IMG/VR virus record: IMGVR_UViG_2695420478_000008
Source of the DNA: a virus
Lineage: Duplodnaviria; Heunggongvirae; Uroviricota; Caudoviricetes
Length of the DNA stretch: 5,548 bases
Direction: 5' to 3' (one strand)
Positions 23-5,548 of the stretch are shown here, in pieces (position 1 is the stretch's first letter; the number at the start of each line of letters is the position of its first letter). The notes beneath the pieces were generated by a model, which was not told the DNA's origin, ran no database searches, and worked only from the letters and a program-made list of their open reading frames with translations. The translations under genes were made by a program, and so were the position numbers.

Positions 23-763
23 ATGAAAAACATTGCGGCAGTTGGGGTTCTTGAACGTATTCGCAGACTTGCACCACAGGGGTCGGTTCCACCGTACCGT
101 ACGGTGGCGGAGTGGCGGGAATGGCAGCTTGCTGAAGGGCGTAAGCGCAGCGAGGAGGTTAATCGTCTGAATCATCAGACGCGGGTTGAAAAAATTATTA
201 ACCGCTCCGGTATCCAGCTGCTTCACCGGAAGTGTACGTTCGGTAACTACCGGGTGCAGAACGATGGTCAGCGCCATGCCCTGAGTCAGGCGAAATCCAT
301 TGCGGCAGAGCTGGAAGGCGGCTGTACGAATTTTGTTTTCAGTGGCAGGCCTGGCACAGGAAAAAACCACCTGGCGGCGGCTATTGGCAACCACCTTCTG
401 GCGAAAGGTCGCAGTGTGATTGTGATAACAGTGGCGGATGTGATGCTGGCGTTACATGGCAGCTACGACAACAAAAACTCGGGCGAAAAATTTTTGCAGG
501 GATTGTGTGGCGTTGACCTGCTGGTACTGGATGAAATTGGCATGCAACGGGATACGCGTAATGAGCAGGTCACGCTGAATCAGATTGTTGACCGCAGAAC
601 GGCATCGTTACTCAGTGTGGGGATGCTGACAAATCTTAACCATGCAGCGATGAATACACTTCTCGGCGAGCGGGTGATGGACCGCATGTCCATGAACGGT
701 GGTCGCTGGGTGACGTTTAACTGGGAGAGTTGGCGTCCGAACGTCAGCCAGCACAGGAACTGA
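23..763 (+). CDS. DnaC-like replicative helicase loader (AAA+ ATPase, DnaC/IstB family), prophage-encoded
   Basis: 246 aa, near-collinear with E. coli DnaC (245 aa) as recalled from memory. Walker [17 protein letters not shown] is at about nt 341-388 and Walker [10 protein letters not shown] at about nt 515-541. Conserved stretches include NRSGI, FxNYRV, ITVADx[22 protein letters not shown] and FNW. The in-frame stop at 14-16 just upstream suggests a preceding gene ends at the window edge. Confidence 0.9.
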
Positions 764-792
764 GAAGTAATTTTTATCCGGAGGAAGTTTTA

Positions 793-1563
793 ATGGAAAC
801 CGTATTGCATGCACTGAAAGCGATGGGTAAAGCCAATTCTGTTGAACTGGCGGCGCGGCTTGATATCAGCCGTGAAGAAGTTCTCAACGAACTGTGGGAA
901 CTCAAAGAAAATGGCGTTGTTGATAAAACGGGTCACACCTGGTTTCTGGCTGGTGAAGGTGAATCCGGGGTAACCGAAGAACAGCCAGCACAGTCTGAAG
1001 TACCGGATGTGCTGACCGGGGAGGTCGAACAAAAAGTTACCGCGGACATGATGATTGAGTTTATCTGTCAGGATGGGGCTAAAACGTGTGAGGAACTGGC
1101 GGATAAGTTCGGTGTTAGCATTCGCAAGGTTGCTTCCACGTTGGCGGTCGTAACAGCAACGGGGCGCCTGGCACGCGTAAATCAGAACGGTAAATTTCGT
1201 TACTGCATGCCGGGCGATAATTTACCAGCAGAGCCGAAAGCCGCGCTGGTAACGGAAAGTGATGGTAAGGCCTTTCCTCAGCCAGCAGGTGCTGCGTTAC
1301 CAGGCCGGGAAGCCGCAACACAGGAAGAAATTAAAACAGAAACTGTGGCGGACATTGTGCAGTCGTTGCCATCGTTTACCGAAACGCAAGCAGATGAGCT
1401 GATTTTTCCGTCCCTGCGCAGGGCAAACCTGGCGCTGCGCAGGGCGAAAAGTGATGTTCAGAAGTGGGAGCGAGTCTGCGCCGCGCTGCGGGAGCTGAAC
1501 AAGCACCGGGATATTGTTCGACAGATTACTGATTCTTCCCGCCGTGTTGTATCGGAAAAGTGA
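793..1563 (+). CDS. Hypothetical prophage protein with two N-terminal winged-helix-like modules
   Basis: ATG at 793 is preceded by GGAGGAA (780-786). The track ORF begins at 730 but that would overlap the end of the DnaC-like gene and has no RBS. Residues ~1-55 and ~95-150 both show the pattern hydrophobic helix, ELA..hG.S, hydrophobic, then G...G.hF, typical of wHTH DNA-binding domains. The C-terminal region is charged and helical. Confidence 0.6.
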
Positions 1564-1578
1564 TTGCCGGAGGCGCTT

Positions 1579-2001
1579 ATGGCAAAAGTATTTACACAAG
1601 AAGAGCGGGAAAAAATTAAGGGGCAGGTTGTTGAACTCGTGCGCCAGAATGGGCGCGAGACGTTACGACAACTTGAAGCTAAGACAGGTGCGACAAGATA
1701 TTTAATGAGCGTTCTCGCCAGAGAGCTGGTTGCCAGTGGCGATGTATATAACTCCGGCTACGGGCTATTTCCCTCTGAACAGGCTCGTAAGGACTGGCAA
1801 AACGCCCGCAAAAAACTCTCAAGGGCAAAGCTGAAGAAACCATCTGCGGTTGATCCGGACCTTATCTGGTCATTACCAGATGGCGAAATACGCCGCTACG
1901 ACAGGCGTCTGAACATAATCTGTCTCGAGTGCCGGAAGAGCGAAGTTATGCAGCGCGTACTGGCGTTTTATCAGGGGAATTTTGAGGAGGTGGTGCGGTG
2001 A
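1579..2001 (+). CDS. Hypothetical prophage protein with a winged-helix-like N-terminus
   Basis: ATG at 1579 with GGAGG (1568-1572) 6 nt upstream. The track start at 1564 is a TTG directly abutting the preceding stop. The N-terminal VVELVRQNGRETLRQLEAKTGATRYLMSVLARELVASGDV resembles the wHTH modules of the preceding gene. The stop overlaps the next start. Confidence 0.55.
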   Translation: MAKVFTQEEREKIKGQVVELVRQNGRETLRQLEAKTGATRYLMSVLARELVASGDVYNSGYGLFPSEQARKDWQNARKKLSRAKLKKPSAVDPDLIWSLPDGEIRRYDRRLNIICLECRKSEVMQRVLAFYQGNFEEVVR

Positions 2002-2252
2002 GTGAATCAAAATGCCAGGTTAATGGCAACAAGATAGAACCATGTGCAGCACTGGCAAAGTCCCTTGAGCATGATGCTGAATACACGATGCGAAAAGGTC
2101 TGCTGATATACAAAATCTGGAATGAGAGTTTAACTCGCGGTCCTGATTTTGTGATGTTGCGTTCCGGTGAATTTTCTAAATTACCAGTTCGGGTTTCATT
2201 TTGTCCGTTCTGTGGTGAAAGTCTGAAAACGTGGGAGAACAGAAATGAATGA
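1998..2252 (+). CDS. Small hypothetical protein with a Cys4 zinc-ribbon-like arrangement
   Basis: GTG start at 1998 overlaps the upstream stop (GTGA), with GAGGAGG (1984-1990) as RBS. Cysteines are spaced C-x9-C near the N-terminus and C-x2-C (CPFCG) near the C-terminus. 84 aa. Confidence 0.55.
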   Translation: MSESKCQVNGNKIEPCAALAKSLEHDAEYTMRKGLLIYKIWNESLTRGPDFVMLRSGEFSKLPVRVSFCPFCGESLKTWENRNE

Positions 2253-2622: not shown

Positions 2623-2688
2623 TAACCGGAGGGATTCCTGCACCCTCAAATCATCAGGAGGCCGCCAGAAAGGGCGGTGGAGATAATA

Positions 2689-3210
2689 ATGGGAATAACT
2701 AAAGAACGATTGTTGGAAATAGCAAACCTTAGTGATTGGGCATTAAGTGATGAGAGAATTGTTTCTCCTCATGCTTATGAGTCAGTTACAAGTATAGAAA
2801 TAACAACAATGGCTAGAATGCTGCTTGGTTATTTCAAAATAGAAAATAAAAAACAGATGGATAGTAATGTTGATATATGTGAGATTTTAGACGATTGGGG
2901 GGCTTGGGTTGTGGCTGGTAATAGTTCTATTGATTGGCAGGAAATAGCTGATAAATATAAAAATGTTGTTCCTCATGGTAAAAAATCACGTCGTCAGTGC
3001 AGCAATGATGAAGGGCGAATTATTGACATTAGTATCCTTAGGTTAGAAAGATATAAGCAACAAGAATATGAGTTAATTGTTGCTCATTTCGTGATTGGTT
3101 TATCTCTTCGTGCTATTGCAAAGCAACAAGGATGTTCAGATGGAACAATTCGTAAAAGATTGCAAAAAGCCTTAGGTTTTTTGACTGGATATATAGCAAT
3201 TACCAGTTAA
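2689..3210 (+). CDS. Late-gene antitermination protein Q homologue (QuuD-like Phage_antitermQ family) with an N-terminal extension of about 55 aa
   Basis: The C-terminal two thirds match my recollection of E. coli DLP12 QuuD: LDDWGAW, KSRRQCSNDEGRI and the C-terminal GCSDGTIRKRLQKALGFL (QuuD has CCSDGYIGKRLQKAEG). The start is uncertain: ATG 2689 has GGAG 6 nt upstream and is preferred, GTG 2677 is the track start, and ATG 2857 would give a QuuD-length protein but lacks an RBS. Confidence 0.7.
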   Translation: MGITKERLLEIANLSDWALSDERIVSPHAYESVTSIEITTMARMLLGYFKIENKKQMDSNVDICEILDDWGAWVVAGNSSIDWQEIADKYKNVVPHGKKSRRQCSNDEGRIIDISILRLERYKQQEYELIVAHFVIGLSLRAIAKQQGCSDGTIRKRLQKALGFLTGYIAITS

Positions 3211-3848
3211 GAGTCAGCGGTTTTTTTACCAGTGTAATGGTATAAGGATACTCCCATGTGTCTTACATGATATGGAAGCGCTGTTGCTGGATGCTTTGTG
3301 ATACTCTTAAAGCGGAGGGGAGAGCCTTCCGCTTCAATTTCTGCGTCCGAAACGGTCGTAGAGAAAAATTCTTTCCATTCATTGAATTTTACTGCTGATT
3401 TGTCAGACTTTATATAAATTAGAATTCCTCCATGATCGTCACGTGACGTACCCGTGCCGTAACGTTCGGTTAGCTGAATCCAGCCATTATGAATAGATTT
3501 GGGGCCTCTCCATAATTTTGCTTCACCGATCCATTCGAATTTTCCGAATTGATGTTTAACTAATAAATCAACGTGACCGCCATGTTGAGTATCATGTTCA
3601 ACATCATAAAACCTACCTTTCAGGAAATTTTTGATCGACGCTGTTAGCTCGTCCTCTCCCCACTTAGCATCTTGATAGAAGTGTTTGTCATTTTCTAAAT
3701 TCTGAATAGCGTCGTCTAAATCTTCATAGAGTTGCTTTACAAAAATATTTTTGTCTGCAGCTAATTTTCTTTGAACCATTCCCCTAAATTCAGGATCCAT
3801 TCTAATTAATGATTGAAGGTCTGCAGTACAGATGTTTACATCACTCAT
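3207..3848 (-). CDS. Hypothetical protein, third gene of the cargo operon; putative PD-(D/E)xK-type nuclease
   Basis: ATG at 3848-3846 is preceded by GGAGAG and overlaps the stop of the upstream gene (ATGAGTGA). The track's longer ORF to 3911 would overlap the upstream gene by about 70 nt. 213 aa. The motif ...EDELTASIKNFLKG...HGGHVDLLVKHQFGKFEWIGEAKLW has E65/E67, D94 and E109-A-K111 with spacing typical of PD-(D/E)xK nucleases. The fold assignment is inference. Confidence 0.6.
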   Translation of the reverse strand: MSDVNICTADLQSLIRMDPEFRGMVQRKLAADKNIFVKQLYEDLDDAIQNLENDKHFYQDAKWGEDELTASIKNFLKGRFYDVEHDTQHGGHVDLLVKHQFGKFEWIGEAKLWRGPKSIHNGWIQLTERYGTGTSRDDHGGILIYIKSDKSAVKFNEWKEFFSTTVSDAEIEAEGSPLRFKSITKHPATALPYHVRHMGVSLYHYTGKKTADS

Positions 3849-4269
3849 GCAGACTCTCCAAAAGACTCGAAGGAGTAAAGTATGGATAAAGATACTGGCT
3901 AAAATTATCAACCAATTCGCCAGTTTCTGGATGGTAAAAACTTCCTGTGTCTAAAGCATAGGAAATAAGATCATCTTCAACTGGTATTGGTTCTTCCGTT
4001 AAATTATCAATGTATTGAAAATGCATATCCAATAGATGTGCTTTATAGCTAGATAAATAATCAGTTGCTTTTATTAGCAGGATATAGTCATCTTTCGTAT
4101 CAGTTAGATAGGTTAAACCATTGATAAGGGTTTTGTATGTAAAGTGATTGATATTTTTAGCATCTTTACTAACCAGAAAAAGAAAAAGATCACGACACAC
4201 ACTGCGAACAGGATCATTAAAATCCTGCTCTATTTGCGTGATAATGTCGTGATATATACTCTTTTTCAT
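3841..4269 (-). CDS. Hypothetical acidic, Tyr-rich protein, middle gene of the cargo operon
   Basis: 142 aa. The ATG at 4269-4267 overlaps the stop of the upstream gene (ATGA) and its own stop overlaps the next start, indicating translational coupling. No recognisable catalytic motif. Confidence 0.6.
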   Translation of the reverse strand: MKKSIYHDIITQIEQDFNDPVRSVCRDLFLFLVSKDAKNINHFTYKTLINGLTYLTDTKDDYILLIKATDYLSSYKAHLLDMHFQYIDNLTEEPIPVEDDLISYALDTGSFYHPETGELVDNFSQYLYPYFTPSSLLESLHE

Positions 4270-5357
4270 TTATGGCCTGATGATCTCGCTCTTCTTTTCT
4301 CTTCACAGGACTTAACAGAATCCAATATTTTTTCAACAATAAATATAATCGAATCAATGTTGTTACAGTTCTTCGCAATTGCTTCATGCAACCTAATTCT
4401 AGGATTATCAAGCATTGTCCTTTTTCCTGGTAATATTAACTCTACTGATAAAATATGTGAAGAACTTTGTGGTAAATCCCAAATTTTTCCCAACTTAAAC
4501 TTTGTCAATATTGGGCTTGCGGACTCTCCACTATGATGGTAAACATCTTGACGCAAACACTTTTGACTTGGTTTGAGTTTTAAAGAACTTGTATTGCCAT
4601 CTGAGGTGATAAAAGATACATGAGAAATTCTGCCATCTACTTTTTCGTAAAGATCTTGTATTGAACCAAATAATTCAAGAGGATTGTTTAAAATAACGCC
4701 AGCTTCTTTTTTTATAAATTTAGCCACAAGGTATTGTTGAGGCTGTGATTCACTTCTTGGAAGGATAGATAAATCAATCGTAAGAATTAATATTTTTTCT
4801 GCAGGCATTAGCATGATGGTATTAAAGCATTGCGTGACTTGGCGTGTTTTGCATTTTATTTCTCCACCATTAGCACGTAATTCCATACCCGCATCGCTAA
4901 GATGTGTTGGGTCAAGCTCTATCACTTCAGTGTAATACGCTTTGGATAAAAAAACAGCAGTGTCAATTTGTTTATCACGAATGATATCTTGACGTAGTTC
5001 AGCAAAATGCAGCTCAGTATCAGCAACTAACAGCTCCTCTCTGGATAAAGGAGTTGGGTATTTTTCTGAGAAGGGGCTATTGTCCTTTTTCTGATTTGTG
5101 AAAATTGTTTGTAATTTTGCTACGTCTTCATCGGTGATTCTATAAATAGAAAGTAATCGATTCCCGCTAAAAATTAAACCTTTCCAGAAATCGTCGATTC
5201 TGTCTTTTAGGTCGGGATTATGCTGAACTACACTATTTACACGTTCAATAAAAAGGGGTAATCCTTGGGCCGTTACACCCAGTGATGAACCAAGAAGCTT
5301 ACGGGTGTTGCGCCAGCCAAAGCGTGAATTGATGTTTTTTACTGTTTGCTCAAGCAT
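4266..5357 (-). CDS. Hypothetical protein, first and largest gene of the cargo operon; function unknown
   Basis: ATG at 5357-5355 is preceded by a strong SD, AAGGAAG (5370-5364), with 6-nt spacing; the track start is the GTG two codons upstream at 5363. 363 aa, with no P-loop, no GS...DxD nucleotidyltransferase motif and no reverse-transcriptase YxDD motif visible. The C-terminus is basic (KRRARSSGHK). Confidence 0.65.
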   Translation of the reverse strand: MLEQTVKNINSRFGWRNTRKLLGSSLGVTAQGLPLFIERVNSVVQHNPDLKDRIDDFWKGLIFSGNRLLSIYRITDEDVAKLQTIFTNQKKDNSPFSEKYPTPLSREELLVADTELHFAELRQDIIRDKQIDTAVFLSKAYYTEVIELDPTHLSDAGMELRANGGEIKCKTRQVTQCFNTIMLMPAEKILILTIDLSILPRSESQPQQYLVAKFIKKEAGVILNNPLELFGSIQDLYEKVDGRISHVSFITSDGNTSSLKLKPSQKCLRQDVYHHSGESASPILTKFKLGKIWDLPQSSSHILSVELILPGKRTMLDNPRIRLHEAIAKNCNNIDSIIFIVEKILDSVKSCEEKRRARSSGHK

Positions 5358-5410
5358 TAACACTTCCTTAATTTTCCCTTAACAATTTAGGGTGCTAAAC
5401 TTTTTTGCGC

Positions 5411-5440
5411 AGTTTACATAAAAAAATAGTGCGTACGCAA
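5411..5440 (-). promoter_or_regulatory. Candidate sigma70 promoter for the minus-strand operon: -35 TTGCGT (5440-5435), 18-bp spacer, -10 TAAACT (5416-5411)
   Basis: Hexamers read by eye on the reverse complement. An A/T-rich tract lies between them and the perfect palindrome GCGTACGC (5431-5438) overlaps the -35. The predicted transcript start would be about 45-50 nt upstream of the ATG. Not experimentally supported. Confidence 0.25.
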
Positions 5441-5508
5441 AAACTATCTAAGGAAGGTGCGAATAAGCAGGTCATTTCTTCCCAAGCTGACTCGCTGATT
5501 AAAATTTC

Positions 5509-5530
5509 TCGGATCTGGGCCGATTTTTTT
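5509..5530 (+). terminator. Weak candidate intrinsic terminator on the plus strand: 4-bp stem TCGG/CCGA, 7-nt loop, then T7 tract
   Basis: Read directly: tcgg (5509-5512), atctggg, ccga (5520-5523), followed by ttttttt (5524-5530). The stem is short and so predicted stability is low. Confidence 0.2.
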
Positions 5531-5548
5531 CCCGCAAACACATCGAAT

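Follow-up and report, generated by a model that had tools for sequence, protein, structure and literature searches.

The 5,548-nucleotide (nt) stretch of IMG/VR virus record IMGVR_UViG_2695420478_000008 (Caudoviricetes), here called the window, belongs to a lambdoid (Rac/Qin-like) Escherichia coli prophage and carries on its minus strand a three-gene operon that we refer to as A-B-C. A first-pass annotation had noticed a PD-(D/E)xK-like catalytic signature in the protein encoded by the third gene, C, and had proposed that this protein is a DNA- or RNA-cleaving effector of the kind used in defense systems. We followed up this proposal by structure prediction, homology searches, and comparison of the loci that encode relatives of C. 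The operon comprises the following elements:

4266..5357, minus strand: gene A, 363 amino acids (aa), the first gene of the operon
3841..4269, minus strand: gene B, 142 aa, the middle gene
3207..3848, minus strand: gene C, 213 aa, the last gene
5358..5548, minus strand: non-coding stretch ahead of the operon; a Shine-Dalgarno sequence (AAGGA) lies at 5369-5365

The stop codon of A and the start codon of B overlap in the sequence ATGA, and B and C share 8 nt at their junction. Together with a GGAG preceding the start codon of C, these overlaps indicate that the three genes are translationally coupled. The operon runs antisense to the phage operons and has a G+C content of 36.5%, compared to 50.1% for the phage genes in nt 1-2676. 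Its promoter is presumably located in 5358..5548; a promoter scan found no strong sigma-70 consensus upstream of A, and the sites on the operon strand did not exceed the background rate.

RefSeq lists the gene C protein as WP_001380433, a 197-aa form that begins at M17 (nt 3800). We favor the ATG at 3848 as the start codon, since PHROG profile phrog_9664 spans residues 1-211 of the longer protein, the homologs align from its residue 1, and this ATG overlaps the end of B with the GGAG 8 nt upstream. Translation from ATG 3848 on the minus strand yields HGGHVDLLVKHQFGKFEWIGEAKLW for residues 89-113 and places D94 at 3569-3567 and E109-A-K111 at 3524-3516 (E109, 3524-3522; A110, 3521-3519; K111, 3518-3516), exactly as the first-pass annotation had positioned them. 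The acidic helix reported ahead of the motif, EDELTASIKNFLKG, is real as well: it begins at E65 (3656-3654), is predicted to span residues 65-78, and its first Glu is invariant. In RefSeq numbering, the predicted catalytic residues E65, D94, E109, and K111 correspond to E49, D78, E93, and K95. The following features of gene C are relevant to the putative active site:

3654..3656, minus strand: codon GAG of E65, an invariant Glu that opens core helix α1; D66 is 93% conserved
3573..3596, minus strand: H85-D86-T-Q-H-G-G-H92, the β1-β2 hairpin and signature of the family
3567..3569, minus strand: codon GAT of D94, an invariant Asp on core strand β2 within the motif G91-H92-x-D94
3516..3524, minus strand: codons GAA GCA AAA of E109-A110-K111, an invariant ExK on core strand β3 within W-I-G-E-A-K
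3459..3476, minus strand: Q125-L-T-E-R-Y130, the near-invariant Q...RY of the helix that follows β3

Conservation of these positions was assessed in 191 members of the C family, made up of 45 close homologs obtained by searching 5.8 billion proteins and 146 representatives of 50%-identity clusters, all aligned to the family profile. E65, G91, D94, E109, and K111 were invariant in 191 of 191 members, and W106 was present in 188 (98%). Q125 and Y130 were each retained in 99.5% of the proteins (190/191) and R129 in 97%; these residues probably form part of the active site or contact the substrate. Within the hairpin, G91 reached 100%, H92 85%, and H85 84% conservation, and the segment may supply ligands for a metal or for the substrate. 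When 1.84 billion cluster representatives were searched by profile, 986 clusters were recovered at an E value of ≤1e-3, 371 of them at ≤1e-30. The family of 986 clusters at 50% identity is absent from Pfam and NCBIfam and is listed as "unknown function" in PHROGs.

An AlphaFold2 model of C, calculated from a 32-sequence alignment, reached a mean predicted local distance difference test (pLDDT) score of 91.8 and a predicted template modeling (pTM) score of 0.88. In this model, an N-terminal three-helix region (residues 8-53) precedes a catalytic core (residues 65-201) that runs in the order α (65-78), β (82-88), β (91-98), β (105-112), α (116-130), β (139-146) and continues with a further helix (151-165) and three more strands. 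The alpha-beta-beta-beta-alpha-beta core that the first-pass annotation had expected was therefore found in the predicted structure; the Foldseek part of the same check gave no significant match in the PDB and is taken up below. E65 lies on α1, D94 on β2, E109 and K111 on β3, and Q125 on the next helix. An acidic residue contributed by α1 is the usual auxiliary residue of PD-(D/E)xK active sites, and the claim that the motif follows the canonical order of the restriction-endonuclease fold is borne out by the placement and the invariance of these residues. The nearest folds to the model were double-stranded DNA (dsDNA) endonucleases of the BamHI/BstYI/BglII group, and CdiA-CT toxin domains were also among the structural matches. 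The Pfam family PDDEXK_9 was touched by just 2 of 32 C homologs (E value of 0.018), a faint sequence signal that agrees with the fold, as does the partial match of many C homologs to a PADLOC candidate described below. Because neither Pfam nor NCBIfam returned a match for the protein itself, we place C in an unannotated family of the PD-(D/E)xK superfamily. It is thus very probable that C has the PD-(D/E)xK fold with an intact active site, in a family that the curated libraries do not cover. The model suggests E65, D94, E109, and K111 as catalytic residues, assisted by Q125. The invariance of the first four over 191 diverse members strongly argues for catalysis, and we consider C, with similarly high confidence, to be a nuclease of this fold.

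Further information came from the contexts in which the C domain occurs elsewhere. In a library of representative proteins, a C-family domain with intact catalytic residues formed the C terminus of NACHT or NB-ARC nucleoside triphosphatases (NTPases) of the signal transduction ATPases with numerous domains (STAND) class, which were 712 to 1,226 aa long and also bore HEAT or TPR repeats (P0086, P0100, P0104, P0110, P0111, P0112, P0114, and P0206). Another library protein, P0092, is a fragment consisting of HEAT repeats and a C-family nuclease. In Avs and other NOD-like receptor (NLR)-like proteins, effector domains are activated through ligand-induced oligomerization, and BamHI-like enzymes cleave as dimers. 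By analogy, the STAND fusions would imply that the C domain is used as an oligomerization-activated effector.

C-terminal tails of at least 12 aa were present in 101 of 192 family members, and 72 of these 101 tails carried a net charge of at least +3 and were Lys/Ala-rich, resembling histone H1. The tail of P0037 matched Pfam HC2 (E value of 9e-6). Long Lys/Ala/Pro-rich tails of this histone-H1-like type were seen, for example, in P0037, P0045, P0113, P0155, and P0184. The gene C protein of the window has a tail of only 9 residues and lacks one of this type. The frequency of such tails nevertheless points to DNA binding by the family, and, taken together with the nearest folds, makes DNA the most likely substrate of C.

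Next to C, genes A and B are nearly always found. We compared 71 loci encoding a C-family protein, which were 59 viral contigs of IMG/VR together with isolate genomes and metagenomes and reached down to about 30% C identity. In 64 of them, A, B, and C are immediate neighbors that share one strand and keep this order. Of the remaining seven, six break off at the end of the contig directly upstream of C, and the seventh is a two-gene variant, locus L009, described below. A narrower alignment applied to a species-representative genome set yielded three loci only. Even between E. coli and an island of Vibrio parahaemolyticus, all three proteins are homologous (32, 43, and 45% identity). A-B-C is an almost obligate three-gene module.

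The module is carried by very different elements. Nt 3207-5451 of the window recurred at 99.4 to 100% identity in prophages on the chromosome in 13 E. coli genomes, including O145 RM9154-C1 and enteropathogenic E. coli (EPEC) O127:H6 E2348/69, and a fourteenth genome covered 89% of the query; these 14 were the only ones among 5,426 complete E. coli genomes. In E2348/69, the operon is flanked by the same Q-family gene as in the window and by hokD. Lambdoid prophages carry the module between Q and holin, and a position downstream of Q was common to three distinct lambdoid backgrounds. In seven GenBank phages that convert their hosts to Shiga toxin 1a (Stx1a) production, a homologous A-B-C is placed directly between the Q antiterminator gene and stx1A and is encoded on the opposite strand. 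In one of these, Stx1_499 (LC567825.1; locus L074, 4541-6648), the three proteins measure 350, 130, and 221 aa, C is 32.5% identical to that of the window, and all are annotated as hypothetical. Beyond the lambdoid phages, the module occurs in a Mu/P2-like metagenomic phage, in phages of Moraxella, Acinetobacter, and Klebsiella, in a 14.8-kb corticovirus-like Vibrio element adjoining its integrase, in a Vibrio island with an integrase adjoining rpoD, in a Shewanella locus adjoining a resolvase, and on plasmids of Pseudomonas (beside an AbiEi gene), Rhizobium, and the cyanobacterium Calothrix. This sporadic distribution across elements, along with the low G+C content and the antisense orientation, indicates accessory cargo rather than a core phage function. 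A-B-C is a moron-like accessory cassette of prophages, plasmids, and integrative islands.

Protein A had no relatives in Pfam, NCBIfam, PADLOC, or the PDB sequences, either directly or through the members of its alignment. Its model (pLDDT of 84.1, pTM of 0.82) shows an N-terminal helical region, an RdgC/CENP-L-like α+β body, and a long C-terminal helix. The nearest folds were RdgC (2owl), Iml3/CENP-L, and Chl4/CENP-N, followed by TATA-binding protein (TBP)-like and helix-grip folds. The superposition on RdgC had a root mean square deviation of 6.4 Å and was not accompanied by sequence similarity, and Pfam RdgC was not matched; relative to RdgC, the N-terminal helical region and the long C-terminal helix of A are additional. 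RdgC is a ring-forming, recombination-associated dsDNA-binding protein, and the Iml3/CENP-L fold has been compared with it in the literature, so that the fold matches of A form one coherent class. Judged by eye, the N-terminal region (LGVTAQGL and its surroundings) is possibly helix-turn-helix-like. In a divergent 17-sequence alignment, very few polar residues are invariant (D195, R269, G277, and the G of a DGR motif), pointing to a binding or scaffolding role rather than an enzymatic one. From its model, A is probably a nucleic-acid- or nucleoprotein-binding protein that is not obviously enzymatic. The sole segment of very low confidence (pLDDT of <50), residues 271-278 (about 4524-4547), coincides with the highly conserved D-x-Y-H-H-x-G-E, in which G277 is near-invariant, and may be a flexible functional loop.

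Protein B is acidic (pI 4.6, net charge of -13), as were all orthologs examined (pI 4.5 to 5.4, net charge of -6 to -13). It corresponds to phrog_11490 and has as its conserved C-terminal motif G-x-F-Y-H-P-x-T-G-x-x-V-x-x-F...P-Y-F-x-P-S. Searches with B and its alignment members found no relatives in Pfam, NCBIfam, PADLOC, or the PDB sequences. In the two-gene variant (L009:4743-6014), a 423-aa protein whose last 145 residues constitute a B domain (hidden Markov model [HMM] E value of 2e-12) is followed by C. The N-terminal region of about 280 aa of this protein is unrelated, and the locus has no A homolog. Since B was kept with C while A was replaced, B is likelier to be the direct partner of C. 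A candidate Rosetta-stone fusion of A and C in P0087, a 31-residue match with an E value of 0.001, was too weak to be used.

Taken together, we propose that C is the effector of a three-gene defense or abortive-infection module, with a probability of roughly 60%. This role is supported by the STAND fusions and by the sporadic, low-G+C, mobile-element context. Under this hypothesis, C would be a metal (Mg2+)-dependent DNA endonuclease and the effector of the translationally coupled A-B-C set. A would sense infection through phage DNA or nucleoprotein, and B would either couple A to C or mask C as an inhibitor until triggered. Activation would then consist of the release or induced oligomerization of C, leading to DNA cleavage. 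The specific division of labor between A and B, drawn from fold, charge, and one fusion, is tentative and somewhat doubtful. A little better placed, if still short of even odds, is the broader picture in which A-B-C would be an undescribed, widely mobile immune system that combines a DNA-encircling or DNA-binding RdgC-like sensor of entering or replicating phage DNA, an acidic adaptor or inhibitor, and a BamHI-fold nuclease, extends from Enterobacterales and Vibrio to cyanobacteria, has had its nuclease independently captured by NACHT-HEAT sensors, and travels as accessory cargo with Shiga toxin in Stx1a phages.

Several observations weigh against this proposal. Foldseek retrieved nothing from the PDB for the C model at an E value of ≤0.001, and its best matches, at about 0.03, included a terminase ATPase of no relation as well as NucS/EndoMS. 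When C was compared to all PDB sequences by phmmer and by profile, no nuclease emerged (a match to Rab21 with an E value of 0.006 was dismissed as spurious), Pfam and NCBIfam had no match for the C protein, and NCBIfam assigned its homologs to no nuclease family. No validated defense model of PADLOC 2.0, which dates from 2023 (PADLOC-DB 2.0.0 models), was matched by A, B, or C. The sole hit was partial and linked C to a candidate, PDC-S54. We found no paper on the A-B-C operon in the literature, where an earlier description may nevertheless exist; the accessions of the operon were also absent from the DefensePredictor supplements. No methyltransferase or other marker of self versus non-self was seen at A-B-C, and the functions proposed for the two partner proteins are guessed from fold, charge, and the single fusion. 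The motif itself is loose: an Asp followed 10 to 25 residues later by [DE]xK occurred in 89% of shuffles of C, and the protein holds three [DE]xK sites. When the hydrophobic strand context was required, the proportion fell to 4.4%. Because 89% of shuffles contain one, the bare D...[DE]xK motif is not significant, and the signal comes from conservation. The idea that a chance D...ExK arose in a protein of unrelated fold draws on these frequencies and on the silence of Foldseek, Pfam, and NCBIfam. It is contradicted by the AlphaFold2 model, the structural neighbors, and the invariance over 191 members, and we rejected it as extremely improbable.

More serious is the alternative that C is an active nuclease in an operon that does not serve defense, which we regard as unlikely, though it is the strongest of the competing explanations. 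A-B-C could be an addiction cassette of the toxin-antitoxin type, with C as toxin, B as antitoxin, and A as regulator, or it could serve the carrier phage by degrading host DNA, excluding superinfection by close relatives, or acting in recombination. The overlap of a small acidic gene product with the nuclease gene is reminiscent of toxin-antitoxin pairs, the module always resides on mobile elements, A has the fold of a recombination-associated DNA-binding protein, and most loci examined lacked known defense genes immediately adjacent. However, the antisense, low-G+C, and sporadic occurrence (14/5,426 E. coli genomes) in unrelated phage types fits a moron better, and the attachment of the nuclease domain to NACHT/STAND proteins is an architecture typical of immune sensors. 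Toxin-antitoxin function and abortive infection can also coexist, so that this alternative overlaps with the effector hypothesis. Less likely again is a modification-dependent (type IV-like) or constitutive restriction system, in which A and B would detect foreign DNA by features such as free ends or modified bases and C, like McrC alongside McrB, would directly cut it, with neither abortive infection nor an inhibitory role for B. Type IV systems are methyltransferase-free as a rule; no methyltransferase domain was found in any open reading frame (ORF) of the window or in the annotated neighborhoods of the other loci, and A is probably a DNA-binding protein. Yet neither A nor B has an NTPase motor or a known modified-base reader domain, and the STAND fusions suggest induced oligomerization after sensing rather than constitutive surveillance; the sequence is silent on specificity either way. 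The PD-(D/E)xK fold also includes RNases and non-catalytic members, and C could accordingly target tRNA or rRNA or be an inactive nucleic-acid-binding module. The CdiA-CT toxin domains among the structural matches would agree with this, and the first-pass annotation had left the choice between DNA and RNA open. We consider it highly unlikely given the full invariance of E65, D94, E109, and K111, the dsDNA endonucleases as nearest folds, and the histone-H1-like tails of many members, which favor DNA.

The remainder of the window consists of ordinary phage genes on the plus strand:

23-763, plus strand: DnaC/IstB-like ATPase
790-1563, plus strand: DUF1627 gene
1564-2001, plus strand: DUF977 gene
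between the DUF977 and Q-family genes, plus strand: two small ORFs
2677-3210, plus strand: Q-family antiterminator (Pfam PF06530, E value of 9e-32)

The ORF at 1998-2252 (plus strand, 84 aa) has a CPFCG motif at its C terminus and possibly encodes a small zinc-ribbon protein; the E2348/69 counterpart has an internal stop and is listed as a pseudogene. The Q-family gene (2677-3210) converges on C with a 4-nt overlap (3207-3210) and itself has a low G+C content of 34.5%. The Q genes adjoining A-B-C in two more lambdoid backgrounds (L005:7612-7998 and L074:6679-7026) belong to the same family (38 to 61% identity), so Q and A-B-C seem to move as a block into the moron slot downstream of Q. This slot is where stx1 sits in Stx1a phages. 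Further downstream, the prophage of E2348/69 encodes another Q, of 229 aa, that is unrelated to the first. At the other end of the window, 5448-5548 matched more than 2,200 E. coli records at 95 to 97% identity, including 1,120 plasmid places and P1-like phages (RCS47, phi456). As hokD is the next gene in E2348/69, this segment is probably a conserved hok/sok-type upstream region outside the operon. A scan of 3000-5548 detected six terminator-like sites, compared to 1.4 expected from shuffles. Several of them lie on the plus strand inside A, B, and C (e.g., 5068-5091 and 4209-4227), antisense to the operon, and could affect the read-through of phage transcription across A-B-C. None is located at the 3′ end of the operon, where C and Q overlap.

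Restriction-fold nuclease effectors are routine in bacterial immunity, and the catalytic signature alone would be ordinary for cargo of a mobile element. The interest lies in the widespread, unannotated A-B-C module, its RdgC-like partner, and its place beside stx1; what is new is the undescribed set of partners of an otherwise well-known class of effector. We found no report of an RdgC/CENP-L-like fold in a defense system. If the proposal holds, a new type of sensor would be added to the repertoire of nuclease-based defense, and about a thousand protein clusters could be annotated. Because the module lies directly beside stx1 in Stx1a phages, it could influence which phages superinfect pathogenic E. 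coli. The occurrence of the C domain in NLR-like STAND proteins is a natural experiment on its activation.

Compared to known systems, C is closest in structure to the BamHI-like enzymes. It shares 8 to 14% identity with BstYI (1sdo), BamHI (1bam), OkrAI (3odh), and BglII (1d2i), with no relationship detectable at the sequence level. Features of C that they do not share are the three additional helices in its N-terminal region and the HDTQHGGH hairpin, which is specific to its family; moreover, C is encoded with A and B in place of a methylase. A type II restriction-modification system was rejected since the methylase is missing and C has no sequence homology to BamHI, BglII, or BstYI. McrC (6hz4), the nuclease subunit of McrBC, needs the GTP-driven AAA+ motor McrB, whereas A and B are free of NTPase signatures. 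Defense effectors with the fold of C include Hachiman HamA (8vxy), NucC, Can2/Card1, Cap4, and Shedu SduA, and C would act in the manner of the nucleases of Hachiman, NucC, Can2, or Avs. The Hachiman partner is a helicase, and NucC, Can2, and Cap4 are paired with cyclic-nucleotide sensor domains; C, in contrast, is accompanied by an RdgC-like and a small acidic protein, in an operon that has no second-messenger synthase. Hachiman, cyclic-oligonucleotide-based antiphage signaling systems (CBASS), and accessory nucleases of type III CRISPR were rejected, as their partner genes, be it for a helicase, a cyclase, or a CARF/SAVED protein, are absent and their HMMs were not matched. PDC-S54, the single-gene phage defense candidate of PADLOC, shares the nuclease core of C. 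It was matched by 24 of 32 C-family members in the nuclease-core region only (best E value of 8e-9) and by the gene C protein with an E value of 0.0016 over residues 88-150, i.e., the catalytic core. About 60 of its 410 profile positions (295-353) are matched by C, and its architecture is different. With regard to the antiviral STAND proteins (Avs, bacterial NACHT), some NACHT-HEAT and NB-ARC-TPR proteins carry a C-family domain with all catalytic residues as their C-terminal domain. In comparison, the C protein of the window is a stand-alone, 213-aa protein with no NTPase, and A and B stand in for the sensor.

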